Part shown: positions 6,910-58,746 of the stretch, in pieces | Numbering within the stretch: position 1 is the first letter of the stretch | How the letters are laid out: each line of letters opens with the position of its first letter | Virus record (IMG/VR): IMGVR_UViG_3300038974_000374 | Span: 1 to 58,912 of that record | Direction: 5' to 3' (one strand) | From: a virus | Taxonomy: Duplodnaviria > Caudoviricetes | DNA: 58,912 nucleotides | Notes under the pieces: generated by a model | Databases searched by the model: none | The model's input: the letters and a program-made list of their open reading frames with translations, nothing else | Told to the model about the DNA's origin: nothing | Translations under genes and position numbers: made by a program

Positions 6910-7340
6910 GGGCGTGTTTGGTTTTGACAGGTAGTAAAGAAATAATAAGACAGCAGAGGTAGACCACCCTCTATAATCAGAGATCAAAACAATAAATGAC
7001 AAGAAAGTAATTTCTTTTGCTCGTCCAGTTGCTGTAATGGTTGCTGCATAGTGAGCCGAGTTGTCAACTGACTTAGGAACAGAATAGTTGAAAAAATGTC
7101 AGTGCTCGAAGAGTGATTGACCTGGTGGATCACATTACCGTAATTGTGATTGATTTTTCTATTAGATTAAATAGAATGGTGGAGCTGGAGGTATTCTTCA
7201 CTTAAAATGAAGGATAAATTCAAAAAGTTTTTGTAGTTTTGATATAGACCAAAACACCAGAAAAGAAACTGTAAAATCTAAGCTGTATAATCTTATTACG
7301 TATCCTATTTTGGACGGCGGTTCGAATCCGCCCACGTCCA
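6910..7340 (+). ncRNA. ssrA: tmRNA
   Basis: Acceptor GGGCGTG/CACGTCC with G3:U70; 5' ggttttgac; T arm ggcgg-ttcgaat-ccgcc; tag ORF 6998-7051 DKKVISFARPVAVMVAA*. Confidence 0.92.
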
Positions 7341-7380
7341 CAACGATTTTCGAATTTTTTAGTTGTGTAACATTATGCAA

Positions 7381-7914: not shown

Positions 7915-8321
7915 TTAAAAGATTTCGCATAAAAAGACTATTAAGATATTACTGGGTAAATCTAGTAAAATGGGCTAATTCTAGAAAATATATTTTAGTT
8001 GATGAAAGAGAACAAAGAGGAAAATTAATTTGTTTAAGATTGATTTCGCACCCTAACTCTGAACTCAAAATTTGTCCAGAAACAAATAAAAGATATATTG
8101 TTAATAAAATAGAGAACATTTCAATTATTATAAATACTGAATCAATAGATTTCTTCGATAATCATTTACATACTGTAAAGTTTTGTGAAAAAAATTATCG
8201 TGCTATTATTCAAGTATTTGATAAACATGCTTCTGCCGATAGACAAAAATTAGAAAACAAAATCCGTGTTAATGTCAAACATTCATTTGACGACATGTAC
8301 GATAATTTATTTGAAAAATGA
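7911..8321 (+). CDS. Hypothetical protein
   Basis: 136 aa ORF with ATGA overlaps at both ends. Confidence 0.55.
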   Translation: MIKRFRIKRLLRYYWVNLVKWANSRKYILVDEREQRGKLICLRLISHPNSELKICPETNKRYIVNKIENISIIINTESIDFFDNHLHTVKFCEKNYRAIIQVFDKHASADRQKLENKIRVNVKHSFDDMYDNLFEK

Positions 8322-8761
8322 AAAAAGCAGTAATATTTGATTTGGACAATACTATATTGTATCAAACCAATCGCAATCCATTTAATTGGAGTGATCTTTC
8401 TGGTGATGTAATAATTCCTGAGATGGAACAGATGATAGAATTATTTCTTGAATCTGACTACGCAATTTTGTTTGTTACAGGTAGACCTGAATCGGCAAAA
8501 GAGAATACTCAGAAGTTTTTACTTGAAAAAGATATTCCTTATGATAGACTTTATATGAAACAAGGCAATCCAAAAAAGAAAGCTGTTGTTCATAAAGAAG
8601 CTACTCTCTTGGAAATTCAAAAAGAATTCAATGTAGTATTAGCATTTGAAGATGACGATAAATGTGCAGAAATGTATGTTCGTAATAAAGTTATGACTCT
8701 TATGCCTTTAAACTATAAGATTCCAAAGAAGGGAAATCAAACGATTATTCCTTTTTCTTAG
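8318..8761 (+). CDS. HAD-family phosphatase (polynucleotide kinase 3'-phosphatase, PseT C-terminal-like)
   Basis: IFDLDNT, FVTGRPE, AFEDD. Confidence 0.8.
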   Translation: MKKAVIFDLDNTILYQTNRNPFNWSDLSGDVIIPEMEQMIELFLESDYAILFVTGRPESAKENTQKFLLEKDIPYDRLYMKQGNPKKKAVVHKEATLLEIQKEFNVVLAFEDDDKCAEMYVRNKVMTLMPLNYKIPKKGNQTIIPFS

Positions 8762-8767
8762 GAATTC

Positions 8768-8843
8768 GGTGCATTAGCTCAGTTGGTAGAGCAGGCCTAC
8801 CAATGTGTAGGTATCGTCAGAGGTTCGAGTCCTTTATGCATCA
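8768..8843 (+). tRNA. tRNA-like gene with atypical anticodon arm (identity undetermined)
   Basis: Normal acceptor ggtgcat/atgcatc, D and T arms; anticodon arm gcctac-caatgt-gtaggt has no 7-nt loop. Confidence 0.65.
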
Positions 8844-8990
8844 CAAACAATTAAAATTTATATTTATGAATGATATAGAAAAATATATTATTAAATCTCT
8901 CATAACTAATACAAGGACTGAGAAAGAAATCGGGTTTAACTCTGCGTTAATAACATTGTTAAAAGCAATGGCAGAAGGAATACCGTTACA

Positions 8991-11314: not shown

Positions 11315-11584
11315 GTTGTTGTAAAAATCTTTTAAACAAATAATAGATCATGTTAAAATTAATTTTGAAATTCTTACGTCCTGATTTTGCATCAAGACAG
11401 GGTAAGATTATCAGCAGTTTTGTAAAAGCATCTAAAGATGCTCAAAAACTTGATGCTCAAATTGCAGAAGACTTGCAAGAAAAACAGAGTCAAATAATTA
11501 AAATTTAAAAAGAAATGAGTGTAGTTAATGGTATCAAAGCCAAAAACTTGAAATTCATTGCTAACATTTCAAAATTTATCGGCT

Positions 11585-11971
11585 ATGAAGAAAATAATGT
11601 TGTTGATTCTCCTGCTGGTGACGATACTAACGGCTAATGCCGAAATACGTTATTACAGAGCGGTTCATTACAATTTTCGATCTACAGATCAAGCATGGAC
11701 GGGGTGGCGCGAAACAAATGTGCTAATATCAATTAATACGGATACTAGGCATGTCGAGATAGATAGTAACACTCCGCAAGTAATTGACTTTGCAGCGTTA
11801 ACTAAGATTAACGGTGAGGGATTTACACTTTATACAGCGGATGCTACAGATCGAAAATATAAACCTATGCAGATTAGCTTTCAATTTTTTACAGATGGAA
11901 AATTTTTCATAACTATTAGTTATAGCGATGTGGAATATTCCTACAATGTCATTGAAATAGATCCGGATTAG
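11585..11971 (+). CDS. Hypothetical secreted protein
   Basis: Signal peptide MKKIMLLILLLVTILTANA. Confidence 0.55.
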   Translation: MKKIMLLILLLVTILTANAEIRYYRAVHYNFRSTDQAWTGWRETNVLISINTDTRHVEIDSNTPQVIDFAALTKINGEGFTLYTADATDRKYKPMQISFQFFTDGKFFITISYSDVEYSYNVIEIDPD

Positions 11972-12142
11972 TAATTATGCAAAACACTACAATAAGAACA
12001 GAATGTACTTGAAATTTGTCAAAAAATGAATTTTTAGCAATTTTTCTGTTTTTATTGTAGTACTTTTGTATCTCATTTCAGCAATAAAAAATTCAATTCT
12101 GTGAAAGTATTTCATGGAAAATAAAAAGTTAAAATAAATAAT

Positions 12143-12215
12143 GCTATCATCGTCTAGTGGTCAGGACCCCAGGTTTTCAACCTGTGAAACACGAGTTCGA
12201 ATCTCGTTGATAGTA
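12143..12215 (+). tRNA. tRNA-Glu(TTC)
   Basis: Cloverleaf, loop ttTTCaa. Confidence 0.85.
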
Positions 12216-12225
12216 CAAAACAAAT

Positions 12226-12299
12226 TGCGGGGTGTTAGCAGGTGGTAGCTTAGCGGTCTCATAAGCCGATGGTCACTGGTTCGACTCCAGTTCCCGCAA
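12226..12299 (+). tRNA. tRNA-Met(CAT), initiator-like acceptor
   Basis: tgcgggg/tcccgca, loop ctCATaa. Confidence 0.85.
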
Positions 12300-12356
12300 G
12301 GAACACGATTGTTATTACTTCCACGTAGTGTGTTCTGGGTAATGCCAAAAATAACA
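12300..12356 (+). ncRNA. Minimal HDV-like (theta) ribozyme abutting the tRNA 3' end
   Basis: P1 ggaacac/gtgttct, P2 gttatt/aataac, P3 act/agt, L3 tccacgt, GG for P1.1, C-A-A junction, no real P4. Confidence 0.8.
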
Positions 12357-12394
12357 AAACAGATGAATTATCTATTAATTATATTATTTTCTCA

Positions 12395-13025
12395 ATGCCA
12401 TTTATTTATTGTATAACAAATAAAGTTAACAATAAAAAAATATGTCGGCAAAACTGTTTTGACTATTGATCAAAGATGAAGAGATCATTGCTTAGATTAT
12501 ACTAAAGTTAGATGCGAGAAACGTCCTTTATATAATGCAATGACTAAATATGGATTAGAAAACTTTGAAGTTTCTGAACTATGTGAGTGCTCAATAGATG
12601 AATTAAGTGAAAAAGAATCATTTTATATTGATGAGTTAGATACTTATAGTTGCGGATATAATGCAACTAAAGGAGGAGATGGCTCAATATTATATAATCA
12701 TTCTGAGATAATTAAATTATATTTAGATGGATTAACTATGAAAGAAGTTTCTTCTATAATAGGTTGCTGTGAAAATACTGTTTCAGATGTATTAAAATCA
12801 AATAATATTGAATCAAGAAAAAATTATAAAGGAATTACAATTAAACAATTATCATTATCCAGAGAATATATCCGAACATTTGCATCTACTGCTGAAGCAG
12901 GGAAATGGATAGTTGACAATAATTTTGCTAAAACTTATAATGGTGATGTTAGGCAAAAAATTGGAAATGTCGCTAATGGTAATGCTAAAACAGCATATAA
13001 ATTCATATGGGAATGGGAAGATTAA
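12395..13025 (+). CDS. GIY-YIG homing endonuclease (A-run frameshift near 12440; in-frame TGA 12477 at a Trp position)
   Basis: FIYCITNKVNNKK/YVGKT...QR(W)RDH...LYNAMTKYGLENF...GYNATKGG; NUMOD/HTH-like C-terminus. Confidence 0.8.
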
Positions 13026-13182
13026 TACTCCAGTTCCCGCAACAAAGATGAAATAGTCTAGGTCCAGAGGGCTCTAGTAGTACATGAGGAAAGTGACTCT
13101 GGGATTCCCTCCGTGTTTAAAGTGTTGCTGCAAAATGCATCCGCTACTAGTATATCTTTCTTTCTTTTAAAAATTTAACATC

Positions 13183-13584
13183 ATGTATGAAATTGAATTA
13201 ACAACAAATGATAAGTATTATGATGCTTATTATTTTAAGACAAAAAATGAAAACAATCAGACTTTACAATTAGATATAATTGATTCAACGTCTTCTGAGT
13301 TGTCAACTTTTAAAACTTATTATATTTCGTTTAGTATAAATACAAAAAGAAAACATGGTTATCAATATTTAAAACAAACTGGTAAAGATGGAATTAAATC
13401 TTTGATTTGGGCTAAGAAATGTATTAAACATTTTATCAAACATAATTTAAAAAATGGAGATAAAATTGTAATATATGCTGATGATTCCAGAAGATTTAAC
13501 ATTTATGTAAAAGGATTAAAAGAATTAAAATTTGATATTACTAAAGTTAATAATCGTAAAGCTTTAATATATAAACATGTATGA
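13183..13584 (+). CDS. Hypothetical protein
   Basis: 133 aa ORF. Confidence 0.5.
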   Translation: MYEIELTTNDKYYDAYYFKTKNENNQTLQLDIIDSTSSELSTFKTYYISFSINTKRKHGYQYLKQTGKDGIKSLIWAKKCIKHFIKHNLKNGDKIVIYADDSRRFNIYVKGLKELKFDITKVNNRKALIYKHV

Positions 13585-13798
13585 ACGTAACATTTAATGA
13601 ATATTTAGAAGATATAAAATCTCAACTTTGTTGCAATATACCTAATTTAAATGAAATTGATTATATAACTTATGATTTTACCAATGAACAAATTGATGAA
13701 AACTTAGATTATTTTCAAGATTGTTTAAATCGAAATTTATCTGGATATAAAGCGTTATTGTTTTTCAACGAATATTTATCTGAGCAATAAATATACTT

Positions 13799-13871
13799 CG
13801 GAATGTAGTTCAGTAGGTAGAATGCGTGCTTTGGGAGCATGAGGTCGCACGTTCGAATCGTGTCATTCCGA
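13799..13871 (+). tRNA. tRNA-Pro(TGG)
   Basis: Cloverleaf, loop ttTGGga. Confidence 0.9.
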
Positions 13872-14100
13872 CAAATATCACGTTGATATTTATAAATAAA
13901 TTAAGTAATGAAAAAAGTTTTTTTAATTTTGGCAGTTTCTTTTGCCATGTTCGCGTGTACTAAGCCGGTTGATACTAAACCTGCTGTAAATGACTCAATT
14001 TTAATTGATACTGTTGAACTCGAAGTTGCGGAAATTCCTGCCGATTCGGTTGACTCTGTTCTTTAATTGAGTTAAAATCCTCGGGAAACCGAGGTAAATT

Positions 14101-14173
14101 GGCTCTGTAGCTCAGTGGATAGAGCAATGGTTTTCTAAACCATCGGTCATGTGTTCGAGTCACATCAGAGTCA
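14101..14173 (+). tRNA. tRNA-Arg(TCT)
   Basis: Cloverleaf, loop ttTCTaa. Confidence 0.9.
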
Positions 14174-14179
14174 CAAATA

Positions 14180-14253
14180 GGGCCCTTAGCTCAGACGGTT
14201 AGAGCAGCGCCCTCATAAGGCGAAGGTCATCGGTTCAAATCCGGTAGGGCCCA
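14180..14253 (+). tRNA. tRNA(CAT), probably Ile2 (lysidine type), otherwise elongator Met
   Basis: gggccct/agggccc acceptor, loop ctCATaa. Confidence 0.85.
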
Positions 14254-14288
14254 CAAATTAAAAAGTTAAACAGTAAACGATAATGAAT

Positions 14289-14362
14289 GTCCTCATGGTG
14301 AAGTGGTTTAACACGGAAGACTGCAAATCTTCTATTCCTCCGTTCGAATCGGAGTGAGGACT
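14289..14362 (+). tRNA. tRNA-Cys(GCA)
   Basis: Cloverleaf, loop ctGCAaa, U73. Confidence 0.9.
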
Positions 14363-14383
14363 CAAACAATTAAAATTAATAAA

Positions 14384-14839
14384 ATGAATAAATATCACTT
14401 TTTTTGGAAATCTAAACTCTCAAATTGGACTTCTTCTCGATTTATCTACAGAGGATTTAACTACAATTGCGGAGAACAAATGATGATGCATCAAAAAGCT
14501 ATTATGTTTAAAGATTGGGAAACTGCTCTTTTAATTGAACAGTCTACTAATCCTAAAGAAATGAAAGCTCTTGGTCGTAAAGTAAAGAATTTTGATACAA
14601 ATGTTTGGGATGAAATTAAATATGACTTAGTAAAAGCTGGGTTATATTGTAGATTCACTCAGGATAAATCAGCAAAAGCTGAATTATTAGCTCATGCTGG
14701 GCAGATTTTTGTTGAAGCATCTCCTTATGATAGAATTTGGGGAATTGGATATACTGCTCAAGACGCAATGCAAAATATTGACAATTGGGGAGAAAACCTT
14801 TTAGGTAAAATATTAACAGAAATCAGTAATGAAATTTAG
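14384..14839 (+). CDS. NADAR (YbiA-like) family protein
   Basis: LSNW, EQMMMHQKA, KALGRKVKNFD, VEASPYDRIWGIG, GENLLGKIL. Confidence 0.9.
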   Translation: MNKYHFFWKSKLSNWTSSRFIYRGFNYNCGEQMMMHQKAIMFKDWETALLIEQSTNPKEMKALGRKVKNFDTNVWDEIKYDLVKAGLYCRFTQDKSAKAELLAHAGQIFVEASPYDRIWGIGYTAQDAMQNIDNWGENLLGKILTEISNEI

Positions 14840-15091: not shown

Positions 15092-15213
15092 CTTAAAAAT
15101 TATTGAATTAGGCATTCCTGTCTATGTAGCATTCGGAGATTAGTTCAGTTGGTTCAGAATAGATTTTTGATATTTTTAACATATTCGAATTAAAATTTTT
15201 TAATTATTTTTTG

Positions 15214-15221
15214 TAACTTTG
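15214..15221 (+). promoter_or_regulatory. Bacteroidota-type -7 promoter element TAnnTTTG
   Basis: TAACTTTG 22 nt upstream of the HNH ATG; same motif at 10872, 12061, 24739, 37685, 38224, 45430, 49924. Confidence 0.6.
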
Positions 15222-15242
15222 TAAAGTTTAAAAACTTTAAAT

Positions 15243-15806
15243 ATGGAAAAATACAAAAAAGAAGAATTAGAAAAATTAATTTTAGTAGATTGTCTCACAT
15301 ATGATGCAATTGGAGTTAGATATGGAGTTAGTGGAGCAGCAATTAGAAAAGCTGCTAAAAAATTAGGAATAGAATTACCGACTAGAAGAAAAATAAATTC
15401 TAGCGAAACTTTCAATAAAGGTTATAAATATGTAATTAAATATTGTAAAAATTGTAGTTCTGAAATTCCTTCAGAAAATACATTTTGTAACATTGAATGT
15501 CAAAAAGAATATCAATATACACAATATATTGAAAATTGAAAGTCTGGACAAGTCAATGGTATTTCTGGTAAATCAGATATTTCTAATTATATTAGGCATT
15601 ATTTATTCAATAAACATAAAAATAAATGCGAGTTGTGTGGATGAAATTCAATTAATCCGATTACTCAAAATATTCCCTTAGAAATACATCACATAGATGG
15701 AAATTGTTTAAATAATAAAGAAGAAAACTTACAACTTTTATGTCCAAATTGTCATAGTTTAACTGAAAATTATGGAAATTTGAATAAAAACTCAAAAAGA
15801 TATTAA
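15243..15806 (+). CDS. HNH homing endonuclease (TGA read as Trp at 15537 and 15642)
   Basis: IEN(W)KSG...CELCG(W)NSINP...LEIHHIDGN..NNKEENLQLLCPNCHSLT; 187 aa if TGA=Trp. Confidence 0.85.
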
Positions 15807-15876
15807 GGATAAGGTCCGGGGTTCGAATCCCTGATTTCCGACAATTAGATTAGATTAAATTAAAAAAAAAGAAAAG

Positions 15877-18411: not shown

Positions 18412-18484
18412 ACTCTATTAGCTCAGTGGGAGAGCAGCAGATTCTAACTCCGTGTTGTCACAGGTTCGATCCCTGTATAGGGTA
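18412..18484 (+). tRNA. Amber suppressor tRNA (anticodon CTA)
   Basis: actctat/atagggt acceptor, D arm gctc/gagc, anticodon arm gcaga-ttCTAac-tccgt (one mismatch), T arm acagg-ttcgatc-cctgt. Confidence 0.8.
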
Positions 18485-18705
18485 CAAATTATAAAATAAT
18501 ATCCGAAATTGATCGGTAAGACAGGTAAGAGGGGAACCCAATGTCGACTTGTAATTAGGTAATGAGTCCGAATATCCTTTAATAGGTTTAGTCCCGTGGA
18601 TAACATGCGTGTAAATGTCCCTTAATTATTTTATAATTTACTGGAAGTAATCCGGCTGGATGAGGGGATGTTTGTTTATAAATTATAATAAAATAATTTA
18701 ATTCT

Positions 18706-20146: not shown

Positions 20147-20606
20147 TAAAATGAATCGAAAAGACTATAAAAGAATAATCAACAAACGAAAGAAGATTTG
20201 GGATACTTTTGAATGGTGGTATCGACAAGAACCTAATCGTTTATATAAAAACCATTCTATAAAATGTGGATGCGCAATGTGTAGATCAATGACTTATTTT
20301 AAAAGAAAAGAAAGAAGAGATCGTAGACATGAATTTAAAATAGAGTTAAATACAATTAAATTTGATTGGTAATGCAAATTGTTAAAGGTAATTTTGAAGA
20401 GTTGCAATATGATAAGTTGCTTCCTTATTTAAATATTGGTGAGATTTGCATTCGTGATTTGTCAAATAATAACTTATATGGAAGATCTTATAAATATTCT
20501 AATTTTGGAATTTGTAATATTTATGATAGACCATTGGGTATTATTTATGAAGATGAAATTAAAGATTCAAAGCATCACATCCATTTTAAATTTTAAAATA
20601 AAAAAA

Positions 20607-21026
20607 ATGTATAAACAAGTAATTGTAATGCGCAAAGATTTAAATATGTGCAAAGGTAAAATGATTGCTCAAGGAGCTCATGCTTCTATTGGAGCATTTT
20701 TAAAATTTGGAGTGAATAAAACATTTGAGTTGTTGGAACCTTTTGAAACAAATCAATCGGGTATAGAATTTCATATTGAAGCATTGAAAGATGGTTCTTT
20801 ATATAACTGGTTTTATTCAGGGCAAACTAAAATTACCGTAGGTGTTGAATCTGAAGAAGAATTAATGAAAATTTATAATAAAATTCCTGATTTTATTCCA
20901 ACTTATTTAGTTACAGATGCAGGTAATACCGAATTTAAAGGAGTTCCTACTGTAACATGTTTTGCATTTGGTCCAATAGATTCAGAATATGCAGATAAAT
21001 TTACAGGACATTTAAAGTTATTATAA
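20607..21026 (+). CDS. pth2: Peptidyl-tRNA hydrolase Pth2
   Basis: KQVIVMRKDLNMCKGKMIAQGAHAS, DAGNTEF, FGP, TGHLKLL. Confidence 0.9.
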   Translation: MYKQVIVMRKDLNMCKGKMIAQGAHASIGAFLKFGVNKTFELLEPFETNQSGIEFHIEALKDGSLYNWFYSGQTKITVGVESEEELMKIYNKIPDFIPTYLVTDAGNTEFKGVPTVTCFAFGPIDSEYADKFTGHLKLL

Positions 21027-22628: not shown

Positions 22629-23015
22629 ATGAAAAAAGTACTTTTATGGTTAGATGATAGTCGTGATCCTAATACAGATGACTGGTTAAATTTTAGTCCA
22701 ATTGGAAAAAATTGTGAAGTTGTTTGGGTTAAAAGTTATGCAGCTTTTACTCATTGGATTATTGTAAATGGATTACCAGATGCCATATGCTTTGATCATG
22801 ATTTAGGATTTACAAATGAATATTATATAGAGAACGATATTGAATCTCCTGATCCAGAACGCACTGGTTACGATTGTGCAAAATGGTTAGTAAAATACTG
22901 TTTATTACACAATAAAGTATTACCTTTGTATTCTGTTCAATCAGCAAATATAGTAGGCAAGGTAAATATAATTAGTTATCTGGAAAATTTTAAAAAATCT
23001 CAAAATGACAATTAA
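22629..23015 (+). CDS. Cyclic-phosphate-processing receiver domain protein
   Basis: LWLDDSRDP, ICFDHDLG, TGYDCAKWL, VQSAN. Confidence 0.8.
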   Translation: MKKVLLWLDDSRDPNTDDWLNFSPIGKNCEVVWVKSYAAFTHWIIVNGLPDAICFDHDLGFTNEYYIENDIESPDPERTGYDCAKWLVKYCLLHNKVLPLYSVQSANIVGKVNIISYLENFKKSQNDN

Positions 23016-24639: not shown

Positions 24640-25409
24640 AGATATAACTTTTTTTGTAAAGTTATTACCGTAAAGTATTCATGAAGTCTATATTTTTAAG
24701 ATTATTATATTTTATTATAATACATGAAAAAAATTTTATATCTTTGTGTTTTAAACAAATAAATTTTATGAGTAAGAAATACACGGATTTAGAACTAATT
24801 GAAGCAATTAAAACAAGTTTTTCAATTGCAGAAGTATGTAGAAAAGTTGGATTGAAACCAGTTGGTGGAAATTATAAAACTATTCACAATAAAATAGATA
24901 AATTAAAATTAGATACCTCACATTTTACAGGTCAAGGATGAAATATTGGATTAAAATTCCAACCTTCTCCAGCAAGACCTTTAGATGAATATCTTGTAAT
25001 AAATTCAACATATCAATCTTTTAAATTAGCAAAAAGGTTATTTAAAGAAGGGTATAAAGAAAAAGTATGCGAATGTTGTAATAATACAAAATGAATGGAT
25101 AAACCTATTCCTTTAGAGTTACATCATATAACCGGAATTAATAATGATCATAGATTGGAAAATCTACAGATGTTATGCCCAAATTGCCATGCTTTTACAG
25201 ATAATTATAGAGGTAAGAATACAGGTATGAGTGCACAAGAAGAAATTCTTGATGTAGAACAACCCTAATTCGGGGAAGGTGTAAGTTAATAGCTTACAAT
25301 AATCCCGAGCTAAAGCATAGAAATATGTAAATGTGTAGAGACTATATAGGTTGCACCTAAGGAGAAATCTATGGTGAAGAGATAGTCCAAGCAGCAGTAA
25401 TGCTGTATG
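24640..25409 (+). mobile_element. Group I intron in the tRNA-Leu anticodon (U34/A35)
   Basis: Upstream exon ends in U, intron ends in G; core elements aattcggggaa, aatcccgagc, gtagagactata, aagagatagtcc. Confidence 0.88.
24768..25268 (+). CDS. Intron-encoded HNH endonuclease (TGA=Trp at 24939 and 25092)
   Basis: DTSHFTGQG(W)N...CECCNNTK(W)MDKPIPLELHHITGINNDHRLENLQMLCPNCHAFTDNYRGKN; 166 aa. Confidence 0.88.
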
Positions 25410-38030: not shown

Positions 38031-40419
38031 ATGACACTTGATAGAACTGAAAGGCAACGATTAGGGGTTAGAAAGTGGATTGAAGCAGGTTGTAGAGGAA
38101 CTTTACAATGGTGTACAGGTGTAGGTATTTAAAGAAAAAATGAGTATAATTAAATTAAAACAGTTCTGAATATAAAAATTAATGTATGTCATATATTTTA
38201 GATTTTATGTACAATAAAAATATTACCTTTGTGTAATATAATAAAACATAAAATATGGGAAAAAGACATGAACAAAGAATTTATGATGAATTAGCTACTA
38301 AATATTTAGTAGAAGGATTAAGTTTGATAGAATTATCAAAACAATCAGGTATAGATAGAAGAACATTATCTACTAATTTTAAAAGAATGGGCATTGAAAT
38401 AGTTAATAAACAAAATTTAACTAAATTTGACGAACATATTTTTGATGAAATAGATAATGAAGAAAAAGCATATTGGTTAGGATTTATTTTTGCAGATGGT
38501 TATATATCAAGTTCAAGTAATAATTTTGAATTGTCTCTTGGGTTAAAAGATATAAATCATTTAGAAAAATTTTCTCAATTTATGAAATACAATGGAGCAA
38601 TAAAACAAGATTTTTATAGATGTAGATTTTCATTAAGAAATAAACATTTATGGAATACGTTAAATAACTACGGTTGTACTCCTAAAAAATCATTAACTCT
38701 AAAATTTCCAAATAAAGGTATTTTTAAATCTAAAGATTTAATAAAACACTTTATGAGAGGGTATTTTGATGGGGATGGTTGTATAACATATCAAAAAGAT
38801 ACTAATAGTGTAAATGGTGTTTGTAGTGTATTAGGTACATCTGAATTTTTAGATGAATTTGAAAATATTTTAAATTTTCAAAAATCTATTACAAGATGTA
38901 AAGATAAAAGATTAACTGGAAATACAACTAGTTTATCTTTTAAACGTACTGAATCAATACAATTAATGCATTATTTATATGATAATTCTTCTATTTATTT
39001 AGATAGAAAATTTAAATTATATTCATTTTTTAAAAATGGATGCCGTTCATTAGAGGAATTTAATGAATTATTATTGACCAATATCGGGGAAAGCTGTGAC
39101 GCTAATCCCGAGATAAATGATTAGATTACGAAAGGCTAATCATCATCGTAACGCGTAGGAGATGAATAAATATAATTCTCCCAAGAGTGGTCGACATCCA
39201 GAACGGATGAAAAGGTACGCTGGACTTATACAAAAAAAGAAGTATAAGAAGTTAAGATAAAAAGCTTAACGATAACAAAACGAAAACACGTGCTGCATTA
39301 ACTGCAATTAAAGGATTCTTAACAAAGAATTCTAATAAAAAGATAGTAGTTGTTGTTCCTACTGAACATTTAAAAATTCAGTGGATTCAAGAACTTTCTC
39401 AGTATTTTTTACTGAACTATGTTTCTGTGGAAATTATTAATTCTGCAATTAAAATTGACGATCAAATTGATTTTCTAATTCTGGATGAATGTCATAGAAT
39501 TCCATCTGATACCTTTTATGCTGTCTTTAATAAAAGACAACCAAAAATTGTATTAGGTTTATCGGCGACATTCAGTAGATTAGATGGCAGACACGAATTG
39601 TTAAACCGATTTTGTCCAGTATGTGATGAAATATCTGTAAAAGAAGCTATTGAAAATAAATGGCTTTCTCCTTACAAGGAATATAAGGTAATTATAGAAC
39701 CTGACGATATTGACATATACCGTGAAGCAAATCGACAGTTTAATGAAGCGTTTTCTGTTTTCAATTTTGATTTTACATTGGCGATGAATTGCATGACTAA
39801 CATTATTTACCGTAGAACATATGGTAAAAAGATGGGAATGGATGCAAAAGAATTAGATGCTGTAGTTTTTACTTGGGGTAGAGCATTGCGTGCGCGTAAA
39901 GCATATGTAATGGAACATGTTAAGAAGTTAGAAATAGCTAGAAAAATTATTGAAGCCAGACCGAATGAAAAGATTATAACTTTCTCCGCAACGATTGCAC
40001 AGGCCGAAAAAATTGGAGGAGGTTATGTAGTTCATTCTGGAAAAACTAAGAAGAAAAATAGAATAACTCTGGAAGAGTTTTCTAAATTGAAACTTGGGGT
40101 TATCCATACAGCTAAAAGTTTGGATGAAGGAGCAGATATTAAAGGATTAAGTGTCGCAATTGTTCTTTCCAACACATCTTCTCAAACTCAAAAAACTCAA
40201 CGAATAGGAAGGGTTATTAGATATGAAGAAGGGAAAGAAGCAGAAATATTTACTCTTGTAATAAAGGGTACAATGGAAGAAGGATGGTATAATAATTCGA
40301 CTGCTGGAAAGAATTATATTGAGATTACAGAATCAGAATTAGATGAAATTTTATTAGGAAAAGAGTCTGAAAATATAGAAAAAGTAGGAAAAGAAGTGGG
40401 AATGATGTTTAGGTTTTAA
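38031..40419 (+). CDS. SF2 DEAD/DEAH-like helicase, spliced (exons 38031-38126, 39283-40419)
   Basis: Spliced Walker A WCTGVG|KT; LILDECH; LSAT; LDEGADI; QRIGRVIR; 410 aa. Confidence 0.88.
38127..39282 (+). mobile_element. Group I intron in helicase Walker A
   Basis: U at exon end, terminal G, frame restored on joining; core aatatcggggaaag, aatcccgag, cgtaacgcgta, aggtacgctgga. Confidence 0.85.
38255..39124 (+). CDS. Intron-encoded LAGLIDADG homing endonuclease
   Basis: AYWLGFIFADGYI and HFMRGYFDGDGCI; Trp encoded by TGG. Confidence 0.9.
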   Translation: MGKRHEQRIYDELATKYLVEGLSLIELSKQSGIDRRTLSTNFKRMGIEIVNKQNLTKFDEHIFDEIDNEEKAYWLGFIFADGYISSSSNNFELSLGLKDINHLEKFSQFMKYNGAIKQDFYRCRFSLRNKHLWNTLNNYGCTPKKSLTLKFPNKGIFKSKDLIKHFMRGYFDGDGCITYQKDTNSVNGVCSVLGTSEFLDEFENILNFQKSITRCKDKRLTGNTTSLSFKRTESIQLMHYLYDNSSIYLDRKFKLYSFFKNGCRSLEEFNELLLTNIGESCDANPEIND

Positions 40420-41261: not shown

Positions 41262-43428
41262 TGGGTGTAAAGCAATTATTAAAAAATATAGAAGAAGGAA
41301 GAAAAGGTAGAAATATTGGTATTAGTACAGGATTACCTACTATTGATTCGATTATATACGGAATACAAAGAAAGTATTTATATACTATTGGTGCAGATAC
41401 CTCGGGTTAAGGAAATTTAAAAACAATAAGTATGATTGGAGTTTATAAAATTATAAACAAAACAAATGGAAAATGTTATATAGGCTCATCTATAAATATA
41501 AATAATAGGTGAGCAAAACATAAAGCACTTCTTAGACATAATAAACATGAAAATAAGAAACTTCAAAATGCTTGAAATAAGTATGGAGAAGAAAATTTTC
41601 AATTTATTGTGATAAAAGAATGTGATAATGAGATGCTTTTAGAAGAAGAACAAAGTTATTTAGATGAATTAGGAGCGCAAGATTTTATTAATAAAATTAA
41701 TAGAAATTTTGATAAAATTTGCTACAATGTTTCAGCTATAGCTAACACCTGCATAATAACAGAAGAAGTTAGAGCTAAAATAAAAGAGTCATTAAGAATA
41801 AAAAGAGAACAAGGATTATTGTTAAAAAGTAATACTAAAAAATGTTACCAATATAATAGATTTACTGGAGAATTAATAAAAGAATGGGATATTATAAACG
41901 ATGCCAATCGCCATTATAACACTCCTAATAATAAAACTTCTGTAATACAAAGAAACTTGTGAGGAGACACTACTACTGCCTTTGATTCTTTATGAACATT
42001 TGAGCCAATAGAATTTGTGTGAGCAAGAGCTCCTCAAAAAAGAACTACTTTAGTAGTTCAAAATATGGTAGAAAAAACATATGCTTTTTATGATAGTGTT
42101 CCTATCTTCTTAAAAGCTATAGGATTAAATCCTAATTCTAGAATAACAATAACTAAATGTATTGATAAACAAATTCCATTTAAAGGTATTTATAATTGTT
42201 TTAAAATTGAAGCCCCTGTCATTTATGACAGAAAACCATTTGAATTGCTGGGAACTCGCGAAGATATAATAACTAAAACGAATGAAGAAATTCTTAACGT
42301 AAATGTTAAAAATATTATATTATGTGACAATCAGCAGCCAATCTCCTAAGTCATTAGATATGGAGAAGGTTCAACGACTATCCCTGGAGAGGGAGTAGGA
42401 TTCAAGAGAATTCGAAGCGGATGGTAAGATTAAAAATCTTAATGATATAGTCTGGACTTATATGAAAGTATAAGAGTGTGTGCGGAATCGGCACTCACAC
42501 AACATAATCGGGTAAAACCTCTTTTGCAATAGACGTATTTGTGTATAACTTGTTGAAAAATAGACAAGATAAAAATGTATCAATCCTTTATTATTCCTTT
42601 GAGATGTCGGCAGATATTTTATTTGCTAAGTTATTATCTTTACATATCTTTGATACATATGGAGAAGTAGTGACTTATGAAGACATTTTATCCTTAACTA
42701 ATCCAATCTCTGAAGAACATCAAGACCTCGTGAGGAAGTCTGAAGATTGGCTATACGAACTCCAAGAACACCTAACTATTTATGACAAAGCTTTGTCGCC
42801 AAACGGAATATACGCAACTTGTAAAGAGTGGCTAAAACAATTTGGGACATTCGTTGAATTAGAGGAGCATCGGGAGGATTATATAGATAATGACCCTAAT
42901 AGGTATAAAGTGGCAATAATTGACCACGTTGGACTTATTACTGGTCCGGGATCTAAAAAAGAAAAAATAGACTTAACCGCAGATTATTTTATCTATTTTA
43001 GAAATAAGTGTTCCATGACTGGTGTATTTATTCAGCAATTGAATAGAAATGCTAAAAGTATGGAAAGAAAAACTAACGGATATGAACTTATTCAGTTAGA
43101 TGATTTCAAAGACACATCAGGAACTTTGGATGCGTCCGAAGTAGTAATTGCTCTCTTTTATCCATATAGAGAGAAAATAGCAAGGTGCGAGGGCTACCCT
43201 ATCCAAAATGTTCTCAAAAAGCGATTTAGATTAGTTCAAATTTTAAAGAACAGATATGGTATAGCTGATGCTTCAAAAGGTACTTCATTTTTTGGAGAAA
43301 TTGGAATGTATCGTGAGATACCAAAACCAGATGAAATTGGCGATTATGAACCATATTTATCTTTAAAATATATTAAACCAGATGAAAATTATACAGATGA
43401 AAATGACAACAATGTATTTAATTTTTAA
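41261..43428 (+). CDS. DnaB-like replicative helicase, spliced (exons 41261-41407, 42511-43428)
   Basis: GISTGL, spliced Walker A ADTSG|GKTS, SFEM, IIDHVG, QQLNR, DFKDTSG, LKNRYG; 354 aa. Confidence 0.88.
41408..42510 (+). mobile_element. Group I intron in DnaB Walker A
   Basis: U at exon end, terminal G; core gaattgctgggaa, aatcagcagcc, ggttcaacgacta, gatatagtctg. Confidence 0.88.
41432..42349 (+). CDS. Intron-encoded GIY-YIG endonuclease (five in-frame TGA read as Trp)
   Basis: IGVYKIINKTNGKCYIGSS..NR(W)AKH...LQNA(W)NKYGEENF; TGA at 41510, 41573, 41960, 41993, 42020; joins ORF-track fragments 41609 and 42065 into 305 aa. Confidence 0.85.
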
Positions 43429-57002: not shown

Positions 57003-57435
57003 TCCAAAAATATATTTAATTGATGAAATTCGATTAAAAAATTTATTAAAAGAAAGTAGATTGTTAGCCGCATTATTAAATGGAGGAGTTGACAATTGGG
57101 AATGGTATGACGAATCAATTAATCAGTTTGAAATTAATACTGGTGAAGATATTGATAACATATCAACAGAGTTAGAAACATTTGATTTATATAAATAATG
57201 GATACTGCTTACTTAAATAAAATAAGTTATCATTTTTCACAAGAAGGTAATACCAGTGGTACAACTTCTGAAGATGAAGAATTGATTGTTGAAGTTGAAG
57301 GACCAGTTGGTTCTATAGAAAGAGAAGGAGGGTTTTTAGTAATTAGATCTTCTACTGGATGGAGCATAAATGATGCTGATGAATTAATGGAAATACTTAA
57401 CCTTGTTCAAAAAGGAGTACCTCTTTCAAAACAAA

Positions 57436-58746
57436 ATGAAAATAAATAAACCAAAAAATGAAAACTATGCAGCAATAGTTGTACAAATTAAAACAATTGT
57501 TCCACTTGAAAATTGTGATAATGTACATGCTGCTATTATACTTGGTAATCAAGTAATTGTAGATAAATCTGTGAAAGTTGGAGATATTGGATTGTATTTT
57601 CCTTTAGAAACTCAACTTTCACAACAATACCTTTCTAACAATAATCTTTATAGAAAACCTGAACTTAATGTTAATCCAGAAAATAAAGGATATTTTGAAG
57701 AAAATGGTAGAATTAGATGTGTAAAATTTAGGGGAAATAAATCTGAGGGTTTATTTATGCCTATTGAATCTATATGTTTTATATCAAATCCTCCAGTTGA
57801 ATTGAATTTAAATGATACATTTGACGAATTAAATGGAGTACCTATTTGTACAAAATATGTAGTAAAACAAAATAAAACTCCCGGTCAGCCTGGGACAGGT
57901 AAAAAAGGAAAAGGTAAAATAGCAAGAGAAAACAAGTTAATCGAAAATCAATTTAGATTTCACGATGATACTTCCATGCTATACAAAAACTTACATAAAA
58001 TTAAACCTAATGATTTAATTTCTGTTACTTACAAAATGCATGGTACATCTGGTATTTCATCTAAAGTATTATGCAAAAGACCACTTAAATGGTATGAAAA
58101 ATTTCTTATCAAACTTGGAGTAAAAGTAGTTAATACTGAGTATGACTATATTTATTCTTCTCGTAAAGTAATCAAAAATCCTGATTTAAATCCAAATGCT
58201 CAACATTATTATAATGAAGATATTTGGGGAATTGCTCATAATGAAGTTAAAGATTTTCTGCAAGCGGGAATGACTTTATATTATGAGATTGTTGGATACT
58301 TGCCTTCTGGTGCTGAAATCCAGAAAGGATATGATTATGGATGTAAACCAAAAGAACATGAAATTAGAATATATAGAATTACTTATACTAACCCTGAAGG
58401 AAAAGTATTTGAATTCAGTGCTAAACAAGTTCAAGATTGGTGTCATTATAAAGGTTTAAAAGCAGTTCCTCAATTGTATTATGGATTTGCCAAAGATTTG
58501 GGTAAACACGCTAATTTATTACATCTTGATAAACCTTGGGATTCTGAAAAATTCTTAGATCTTATAAAAACAAAATACAATGAAAAAGATTGTTATATTT
58601 GTAAAAACAAGGTTCCTGAAGAGGGATGTGTTATTCGAGTAGAACAAGAAAATTTTGAAGCGTTTAAACAAAAGTCTAACCGATTCTATGAATTAGAAAC
58701 AAAACAGCTTGATAAAGGCGAATCTAATATAGAAGACGAAAATTAA
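57436..58746 (+). CDS. RNA ligase (Rnl2/DRB0094-like, with N-terminal tRNA-binding OB fold)
   Basis: YKMHGTS, YEIVG, VPQLY, EGCVIR, FKQKS; N-terminal VKFRGNKSEG. Confidence 0.8.
   Translation: MKINKPKNENYAAIVVQIKTIVPLENCDNVHAAIILGNQVIVDKSVKVGDIGLYFPLETQLSQQYLSNNNLYRKPELNVNPENKGYFEENGRIRCVKFRGNKSEGLFMPIESICFISNPPVELNLNDTFDELNGVPICTKYVVKQNKTPGQPGTGKKGKGKIARENKLIENQFRFHDDTSMLYKNLHKIKPNDLISVTYKMHGTSGISSKVLCKRPLKWYEKFLIKLGVKVVNTEYDYIYSSRKVIKNPDLNPNAQHYYNEDIWGIAHNEVKDFLQAGMTLYYEIVGYLPSGAEIQKGYDYGCKPKEHEIRIYRITYTNPEGKVFEFSAKQVQDWCHYKGLKAVPQLYYGFAKDLGKHANLLHLDKPWDSEKFLDLIKTKYNEKDCYICKNKVPEEGCVIRVEQENFEAFKQKSNRFYELETKQLDKGESNIEDEN

Follow-up and report, generated by a model that had tools for sequence, protein, structure and literature searches.

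A probable mobile cassette behind tRNA-Met

The stretch of DNA considered here (the window) comprises all 58,912 bases of one viral contig, IMG/VR record IMGVR_UViG_3300038974_000374 (Caudoviricetes), with 31% G+C and an estimated completeness of 34% by CheckV. All of its long open reading frames (ORFs) lie on the + strand, and it holds about 23 tRNA genes (20 found by ARAGORN and three more by Rfam) and one transfer-messenger RNA (tmRNA) gene found by Rfam. One of the tRNA genes, a tRNA-Met, is followed by a predicted self-cleaving ribozyme, a gene for a GIY-YIG homing endonuclease and a second copy of its own 3′-end. It is very probable that this segment (12284-13042) is one copy of a recurrent mobile cassette, operating at the DNA level, of large tRNA-rich phages. 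Directly observed are the anatomy of the cassette, its recurrence, the covariation of the ribozyme fold, and filled and empty alleles in relatives.

The tRNA-Met gene (anticodon CAT; 12226-12299, + strand) has a 7-bp acceptor stem formed by 12226-12232 and 12292-12298, the discriminator A12299, and no encoded CCA. ARAGORN places the gene at 12225-12300 with an 8-bp acceptor stem, and the Rfam tRNA model scores it at 26.3 bits, below the gathering score of 29. In unrelated phage tRNAs that share the last 22 nt of tRNA-Met, CCA stands directly after the base that matches A12299. The canonical 7-bp stem and the position of CCA in tRNAs with the same 3′-end therefore make G12300 the first base past the discriminator, the register that a preliminary description of this DNA had assumed.

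The last 16 nt of the gene (ACTCCAGTTCCCGCAA, 12284-12299), which span the T-loop A through the discriminator (tRNA positions 58-73), are repeated exactly at 13027-13042 on the same strand, at a spacing of 743 nt, confirming the earlier remark that the end of the tRNA reappears after the GIY-YIG stop. Copy 1 belongs to the presumed working tRNA and stops exactly at the tRNA end; copy 2 is a displaced copy of positions 58-73 that has no tRNA body before it and starts one base after the endonuclease stop. The repeat is G+C-rich inside a window of 31% G+C. Between the copies lie the ribozyme (12300-12357) and the endonuclease gene (12395-13025, + strand, stop codon 13023-13025), the latter with a helix-turn-helix in its C-terminal half. 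Three parts make up the cassette, namely a substitute for tRNA positions 58-73, the theta-type ribozyme and the GIY-YIG gene, which is free-standing, with the native 16-nt 3′-end pushed to the 3′ side of the endonuclease stop; equivalently, ribozyme, endonuclease and 16 nt are inserted after the discriminator.

The cassette is covered by contigs of three metagenome runs from three studies (X2, X3, X7), and single contigs bridge both copies of the repeat in X2 (12164-13082) and in X3 (12188-13108). Because these single contigs span it, the architecture is not an assembly artefact. The metagenome runs, four in all, were available as assembled contigs, which can show presence only.

An endonuclease gene in a tRNA gene might be taken for the passenger of a group I intron, since GIY-YIG genes are often annotated within such introns. 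Integrating elements commonly duplicate tRNA 3′-ends, and the repeat might likewise be read as the attachment site of an integrase-type element. Both of these explanations have almost no probability. A search of 12100-13300 with Rfam at E ≤ 10 gave no intron or other family apart from the tRNA and an HDV-type match (hepatitis delta virus, HDV), and the approximately 95 nt of non-coding sequence are too little for an intron core; moreover, the insert lies after the discriminator or in the T-loop and not in the anticodon loop. As for integration, the endonuclease is the sole ORF between the repeats, and there is no integrase.

A predicted ribozyme at the tRNA 3′-end

Theta ribozymes are tRNA-associated minimal HDV-like ribozymes of Caudoviricetes (Kienbeck et al. 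2024, PMC10879173), and the segment 12300-12357 (+ strand) can be folded as a ribozyme of this type with predicted cleavage 5′ of G12300. P1 (7 bp) pairs 12300-12306 with 12330-12336 and includes a G12300-U12336 wobble; P2 (8 bp) pairs 12309-12316 with 12350-12357; P3 (3 bp, ACT/AGT) pairs 12317-12319 with 12327-12329 and encloses the 7-nt loop L3 (12320-12326); and P1.1 (2 bp) joins C12321 and C12322 of L3 to G12337 and G12338. The candidate catalytic cytosine is C12345, the first base of J4/2, a role assigned by homology with the published motif.

In a descriptor scan the fold that begins at G12300 is a mismatch-free nested double pseudoknot (P1-P2-P3-P1.1), and 12300-12357 is the sole clean match on both strands of the window. 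R1, a ribozyme covariance model whose structure comprises P1 and P3 and in which the window’s ribozyme is a seed member, matches this segment and no other in the window at E < 0.1 (61.3 bits). The preliminary description had let a minimal HDV-like fold open at G12300, with predicted cleavage directly past the discriminator; the clean descriptor match and the family covariation described below uphold the fold, and the predicted site agrees with the position of G12300 next to A12299.

Relatives of the fold were sought in a comparison set of 80 viral loci that encode relatives of the window’s endonuclease (with labels of the form L001). In an alignment of 19 ribozymes, the cells pair in 91.7% of cases, a value that falls to at most 44.6% once the partner is slid, and double-sided changes occur in 16 of the 18 pairs of P1, P2 and P3. 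The closing pair of P1 at the cleavage site is G-U in 16 of the 19 members, and C12345 is aligned to column C46 (alignment A2), which is C in at least 90% of them. The 19 rows were first chosen by a pairing descriptor, and a check of P1 anchored on the core is less circular. When the window and the 80 loci were searched for the 11-nt P3/L3 core with at most one mismatch, it was found at 44 places in the 80 loci, 42 of them on the endonuclease strand, and all seven P1 pairs are present at 34 of the 44. The window is absent from these 44 places, its own core differing at two positions. A ribozyme with the window’s P1, its rare ACT/AGT P3 and its L3 stands behind a tRNA-Arg in L075, where P2 is different yet compensated.

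Recurrence of the design in related loci

At E < 0.001, model R1 gave 36 matches, one in the window and 35 in the 80 loci, every one of them on the endonuclease strand. The ribozyme lies 60-170 nt upstream of the endonuclease in 28 of the 80 loci and starts there at the base after a tRNA. Five of the seven other matches in the loci have a further GIY-YIG gene of the same kind within about 60 nt downstream; of the remaining two, one is followed by a tRNA and the other by four tRNAs and a second ribozyme-endonuclease pair. Divergent ribozymes were recognized by eye in L032, L037 and L076, and weak R1 scores were obtained in L074 and L079.

The duplication recurs as well. In 16 of 30 ribozyme-bearing loci, 12-16 nt from the 3′-end of the local tRNA stand again, unchanged, directly behind the endonuclease stop, and in all 16 the repeated tRNA segment ends at the base before the ribozyme’s G1. 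These duplications represent seven different sequences; L030 has a duplication with one mismatch, and 13 of the 30 loci have none. At four sites (this window, the L004-type site, L009 and the L038-type site) the repeat is exactly 16 nt long from tRNA position 58, and at all four the stop codon of the endonuclease touches or runs into the first bases of copy 2. In relatives copy 2 is graded in length (16, 14, 13 or 12 nt, or none). The two copies are identical in the window and from zero to several bases apart in relatives, where the native copy is not distinguishable.

These details bear on how the cassette enters a tRNA gene. One route is entry at the T-loop with a replacement 3′-end, copy 2 being the displaced native end. 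In the other, the same cassette is inserted after the discriminator, a 16-bp staggered cut is filled in, and copy 2 arises from the insertion event as a target-site duplication. The second route would account for copies that are identical in the window and in several relatives, for a repeat that always matches the local tRNA sequence, and for a length of exactly 16 nt at four sites. Nonetheless it is unlikely. GIY-YIG enzymes such as SegB are described as leaving mostly 2-nt 3′ overhangs rather than 16-nt staggers (PMC2330249), and the left edge of the repeat sits in the T-loop, which fits the recognition of the T-psi-C motif by SegB-type enzymes reported in the same source. The abutting or overlapping stop codon speaks against a duplicated target site too, as does the graded decay of copy 2 in relatives, which is what would be seen for a useless remnant. 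Fungal mitochondria, moreover, provide documented cases of endonuclease ORFs that supply a gene with a replacement 3′-end and push the native one aside (PMC3630166).

Several related loci show further arrangements. In L081, near-identical ribozymes occur at 2481-2534, after a tRNA-Tyr and followed by four tRNAs, and at 2897-2951, after a tRNA-Gln and followed by an endonuclease. The endonucleases of L002, L003 and L020 have C-terminal two-thirds identical to those of L004-L006 and different N-terminal parts; upstream stands a tRNA-Cys without ribozyme in the former and a tRNA-Met with ribozyme in the latter, and L002 and L003 retain a tRNA-Met 3′ fragment behind the endonuclease stop. This pattern points to a probable recombination between cassette copies. 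In L023, L027/L028 and L029/L049/L051, ribozyme-less endonucleases lie directly behind tRNA-like genes, situated about 80-200 nt upstream of the endonuclease start, whose T-loops are by eye unlike TTCGA. Such genes might be alleles that escape a T-loop-directed enzyme.

Filled and empty sites

The endonuclease of L004 is 54% identical to that of the window. With the junction between its copy 2 and the flank as query, 22 viral contigs were found. In 15 of these a complete tRNA-Met runs straight into the flank with neither ribozyme nor endonuclease, and in the other seven the end of the endonuclease stands there. An empty allele (L219) and a filled one (L165) are alike for at least 400 nt upstream and at least 300 nt downstream, and they differ by an insertion of about 734 nt made up of 16 nt, ribozyme and endonuclease. 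At the L004-type site, ribozyme and endonuclease are gained or lost as one unit.

Two kinds of candidate empty allele for the window’s own cassette were rejected. Matches to the 22-nt tRNA 3′-end (14 in metagenomes and five in viral contigs) are unrelated tRNA genes with no ribozyme. Contig joints of 12179 or 12217 to 13048, with a shorter side of 22-30 nt, probably belong to related phages in which a tRNA-Glu is followed by the element at 13048-13126. That element, just 3′ of repeat copy 2, has several times the depth of the cassette in metagenome contigs; the contigs over it vary by 3-6 bases and run on into other sequence, and it is a conserved element shared with other genomes. It has no Rfam match and no significant fold (minimum free energy, MFE, z 0.36 for 13027-13182).

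Weighing the cassette against other explanations

Several observations weigh against the cassette, and they concern its ribozyme, its endonuclease gene, its own site and the frequency of ribozymes that stand alone. The Rfam model RF02682 (HDV-F-prausnitzii) aligns exactly from 12300, at 22.7 bits against a gathering score of 44 (E 0.12), and no Rfam HDV-type family reaches its gathering threshold on the window’s ribozyme. The window’s J4/2 reads CCAAA against the family consensus CTAA, so that C12345 is followed by a C in place of the consensus T. MFE folding of the ribozyme equals that of shuffles (z -0.36), a result that is uninformative because it is to be expected of a pseudoknot.

The sub-threshold Rfam match and the unremarkable folding energy are also what would favor the view that the fold is a coincidence in an A+T-rich spacer and the repeat a product of chance or assembly, and the A+T-rich window does contain 127 exact 12-mers repeated within 1500 nt. 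Longer repeats are another matter, however. Markov-shuffled 58.9-kb copies of the window yield a mean of 0.22 exact 16-mers repeated at 50-1500 nt spacing, and any such 16-mer occurs in 32 of 200 shuffles. Both copies are spanned in independent assemblies from three studies, the same design stands at other tRNAs, and P1 and P2 covary across the family. Contradicted by covariation, recurrence, the L219/L165 alleles and independent contigs, an origin by chance or artefact is extremely improbable.

With regard to the endonuclease, the preliminary description implied an uninterrupted ORF, and this does not hold for the present record. The frame is broken by a +1 frameshift, owing to one extra A in the A-run at 12434-12440, and by an in-frame TGA (12477-12479) at a position where relatives have Trp or Phe. 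The ORF begins at ATG 12395 (MPFIYCITNKVNNKK...) and resumes as YVGKT... after the frameshift; the GIY strand (MPFIY) comes from the other frame, a little way upstream, and the longest open piece is 12540-13025 (161 aa). The contigs of X2, X3 and X7 are all one base shorter at 12434 and so stay in frame, which marks the frameshift as an error or as peculiar to this record; the TGA is kept in all three. With the TGA read as W, Pfam GIY-YIG (PF01541) matches at 23.4 bits against a cut-off of 22.6, and in an alignment with 12 relatives E67 and N82 never vary and R20 and H24 hardly do. Homologues of the endonuclease number 255 at E ≤ 0.001 and are typically 211-223 aa long, several being encoded on contigs 130-185 kb long; among the intact ones, identity reaches 72%. 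A pseudogene reading, taken from assignment of the 161-aa ORF to cluster P0001, was rejected, as that ORF reflects the standard-code stop alone and is silent on the frameshift.

IMG/VR and JGI contigs yielded neither an empty nor a filled relative of the window’s own site. Viral contigs had no match to the exact 36-nt right junction or to the 45-nt tRNA 3′ half, the downstream ORF (13183-13581) has no relatives among them, and megablast of 11500-14500 against GenBank phages returned just a 74-nt tRNA match. No contig in the four metagenome runs joins 12299 to 13043. The empty alleles that had been proposed as a check on the cassette were thus found for a 54%-identical relative, with 15 empty and seven filled contigs, and not for the window’s own site. 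Even at the L004-type site, the plain allele could arise by deletion between the repeats, and the comparison does not give the direction of change.

Further contrary evidence comes from ribozymes that have no endonuclease. A sample blind to the endonuclease was drawn by scanning viral contigs for the core pattern, and it comprises 82 ribozyme matches in 80 loci; the counts from this sample are among the matches listed. An endonuclease lies within 1100 nt of 22 of the 82 ribozymes, and 60 have none. When only the 71 ribozymes with at least 700 nt of downstream DNA are considered, 20 have an endonuclease, and among 57 distinct evaluable combinations of tRNA end and P1 the figures are 15 with and 42 without. 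The duplication is present at 11 of the 22 endonuclease-bearing matches, including L124, where the last 35 endonuclease residues are left and the repeat lies at +212. At the 60 ribozyme-only sites the duplication is found within 1500 nt in none, and no weak endonuclease remnant appears even at E ≤ 10. In the near-identical pair L137 and L163, with the same tRNA and ribozyme, L163 alone adds endonuclease and repeat, and at this site the ribozyme is not what moves. L169 and L047 share the tRNA 3′-end, the ribozyme and a further 14 nt before they diverge. Finally, the ribozyme closest to the window’s is that of L075, yet the L075 endonuclease is only about 34% identical, and the histories of ribozyme and endonuclease are therefore not strictly coupled. 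Collectively, these cases show that the ribozyme also persists, or exists, apart from the endonuclease.

Such cases suit a different history, in which the ribozyme is a resident phage device for tRNA 3′ processing, as published for theta, and the endonuclease arrived later and separately. The 60 solitary ribozymes, the L137/L163 pair, the shared stretch in L169 and L047, and the likeness of the window’s ribozyme to one with a distant endonuclease are all in its favor. It is nevertheless improbable. In the window, as in 16 related loci, the two repeat copies enclose the ribozyme as well as the endonuclease, and there they never enclose the endonuclease alone; likewise, 15 plain tRNA-Met alleles lack both parts where the filled alleles have both. 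Sites of the L137/L163 type leave these duplications and empty sites unexplained. A general processing strategy also fits poorly with a window in which just one of about 23 tRNAs has the ribozyme, and that same tRNA has the endonuclease. An endonuclease lies within 1160 nt of 15 of 44 tRNAs with a ribozyme as against 38 of 417 without, the latter figure being inflated by neighbors of the same cassettes.

The cassette, as a single mobile unit of ribozyme and endonuclease, therefore stands in a qualified form. Its recurrent design and the exact difference between filled and empty alleles in a relative support the unit that the preliminary description proposed, whereas ribozyme-only sites exist. 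The case it had named as refuting, a ribozyme without endonuclease at an unduplicated site, does occur (L137 against L163), and leaves the bracketing duplications and empty sites unaccounted for. The adjacency of theta ribozymes and endonucleases, which it had proposed to count, is seen at 20 of the 71 evaluable ribozymes of the endonuclease-blind sample, most having no endonuclease.

A model for the cassette

The arrangement suggests a course of events in which self-cleavage, tRNA function, the cut site and homing are presumed for this cassette. The tRNA cluster would be transcribed through the cassette, and the ribozyme would cut 5′ of G12300 to give a tRNA-Met that ends at the discriminator with a 2′,3′-cyclic phosphate, ready for end-healing and CCA addition. 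The same cut would free an endonuclease mRNA headed at its 5′-end by the ribozyme. In this way the tRNA would survive an insertion that would otherwise bury its 3′-end in a trailer of about 740 nt, and release of the tRNA by the ribozyme would make the insertion harmless. In a mixed infection, tRNA alleles without the cassette would be cut by the endonuclease, probably at or close to the T-loop, and repaired with the filled allele as template, so that ribozyme and endonuclease would be copied together. The window encodes candidates for end-healing, namely a PNKP-type phosphatase domain (8318-8758), a cyclic-phosphate-processing receiver domain (22629-23012) and an RNA-ligase-like ORF (57403-58743), and these could deal with the cyclic phosphate.

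A cassette that is present in some alleles and absent from others suggests how tRNA-trimming ribozymes may spread. A wider proposal can be put forward tentatively, and with some doubt: that theta ribozymes are primarily the RNA module of homing-endonuclease cassettes that colonize tRNA genes by way of the T-loop, and not a tRNA-processing invention of phages. On this proposal the ribozyme would take the place of splicing, ribozyme-only sites would be immune scars, and the endonucleases would track a late genetic code. A scar would form once the endonuclease has decayed and been deleted, with the ribozyme retained by a tRNA that has come to need it. The leftover tRNA-ribozyme junction would no longer be a target, and immune ribozyme-only sites would accumulate. 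If true, this would explain why about three quarters of theta sites have no endonuclease. As to the code, an in-frame TAG (Gln) or TGA (Trp) would make translation of the endonuclease wait for a suppressor tRNA.

The cassette would offer a first evolutionary account of how theta ribozymes reach exact tRNA ends and spread, namely as cargo of a selfish endonuclease. It would also represent a third way, besides introns and inteins, for a homing endonuclease to enter an essential gene and leave it functional, by means of a spare 3′-end and a self-cleaving RNA. The presence of a theta ribozyme alone would then be no proof of adaptive tRNA regulation. Filled and empty alleles make the model directly testable with cloned parts, and compact cassettes of tRNA, ribozyme and ORF may be of practical interest as a source of tRNA and protein from one transcript.

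Other features of the window

In-frame TGA at expected Trp positions occurs in each of the window’s four endonuclease-type ORFs. A second GIY-YIG gene (41432-42349) has five in-frame TGA codons and matches PF01541 at 44 bits with TGA read as W, and HNH-like ORFs at 15243-15806 and 24681-25268, whose motifs were identified by eye and not by Pfam, have two each. In endonuclease relatives from other phages, in-frame TAG at Gln positions or TGA at Trp positions is seen. The window’s ordinary genes are open under the standard code. A global reading of TGA as W in this phage was considered and rejected, because TGA is the stop codon of the adenylosuccinate synthetase gene, which readthrough would join to the following ORF; recoding of TGA would be at most partial. 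No tRNA with anticodon TCA occurs in the window. ARAGORN reports a tRNA with a four-base anticodon (aatg) at 8768-8844 and a CTA suppressor tRNA at 18412-18485, and no in-frame TAG was seen in the window’s genes.

A further tRNA gene (region 15133-15850) is apparently split by the HNH-like ORF at 15243-15806. Its 5′ part, resembling acceptor and D-arm, lies at about 15133-15175, and its 3′ part, with T-arm and acceptor, at about 15808-15850, right after the ORF stop; model R1 has no ribozyme match in 15133-15850. Around the tRNA array there is a set of RNA-repair and translation genes that includes the tmRNA, the PNKP-type phosphatase, a PTH2 peptidyl-tRNA hydrolase, the cyclic-phosphate receiver and the ligase-like ORF, which has a PHA02142 OB fold; the coordinates listed for the set are 6910-7343, 8318-8758, 20436-21023, 22629-23012 and 57403-58743. 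An ORF with a LAGLIDADG-like domain (38255-39121) closely precedes a helicase gene fragment (39427-40416) and is possibly a further homing endonuclease or what is left of an intein. At the end of the contig (58765-58880), a run of exact 16-mers repeats at 93-nt spacing.

Comparison with known systems

The component parts of the cassette are published, and their union as one mobile unit was not found in the literature searched. Nothing was found there on a combination of ribozyme, homing endonuclease and tRNA, with theta papers judged by title or abstract. The reference study of theta ribozymes lists 1753 tRNA-associated examples, with cleavage sites within ±5 nt, and mostly ±1 nt, of the tRNA 3′-end; four tRNA/theta pairs underwent Mg-dependent self-scission in vitro, which a C to U change in J4/2 abolished (PMC10879173). 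There, theta is explained as a space-saving phage device for tRNA 3′ processing and code switching, and the words “endonuclease”, “GIY” and “homing” do not occur in the main text (PMC10879173). The window’s ribozyme is like theta in its minimal nested double pseudoknot, in a G1 (G12300) placed right after the tRNA 3′-end (A12299), in the conserved C that opens J4/2, and in a tRNA without encoded CCA. Like theta phages, the window also has a suppressor tRNA and an RNA-ligase-like gene. Unlike published theta, the ribozyme is a module of an insertion that includes a tRNA 3′ duplication and an endonuclease gene, and the metagenomes that hold the window’s sequence are labeled wastewater, bioreactor and aquatic rather than gut.

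Among free-standing homing endonucleases, T4 SegB is a GIY-YIG enzyme encoded in a tRNA cluster that recognizes 27 bp including the conserved T-psi-C stem-loop motif of tRNA genes, and it drives preferential inheritance of its own gene and of neighboring tRNA genes in mixed infection (PMC2330249). The window’s enzyme is similarly a GIY-YIG protein encoded among phage tRNA genes. The SegB gene, however, lies between tRNA genes, and the abstract of that paper describes no ribozyme and no tRNA 3′ duplication. In structure, the nearest precedent is provided by the fungal mitochondrial mORFs, which carry a replacement gene 3′-end in Allomyces atp6 and in Glomus atp6, atp9, cox2 and nad3 (PMC3630166). 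There, as in the cassette, an endonuclease ORF enters with a substitute 3′-end and the native end is left downstream; expression of the hybrid gene is a feature of the mORFs (PMC3630166). The corresponding layout, a duplicated 3′-end with one copy fused to the tRNA and one behind the endonuclease, is found in the window and in 16 related loci. mORFs are recognized by a divergent inserted copy; the window’s copies are identical, and a foreign origin is not evident from their sequence. The hosts of mORFs are protein genes, in which a stop codon ends the product, whereas the cassette’s host is a tRNA, with a ribozyme where the 3′-end must form.

Comparisons can also be drawn with elements that combine a catalytic RNA and a host RNA gene. 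HDV-like ribozymes at the 5′-end of R2 retrotransposons separate host RNA from element RNA. The cassette resembles R2 in having an HDV-type ribozyme, here a predicted one, at the upstream junction of a site-specific element that would be co-transcribed with a host RNA gene. R2, however, moves through RNA and a reverse transcriptase in eukaryotic ribosomal DNA; the cassette lacks such an enzyme, and its expected means of movement is the repair of DNA breaks. Group I introns with homing endonucleases occur in tRNA genes, and they share with the cassette a selfish endonuclease in a tRNA gene and an RNA catalyst, here a predicted one, that keeps the tRNA usable. Unlike a group I intron, the cassette involves no splicing and no intron core; its single cut is predicted at the tRNA 3′-end, with a duplicated DNA segment making the tRNA whole.

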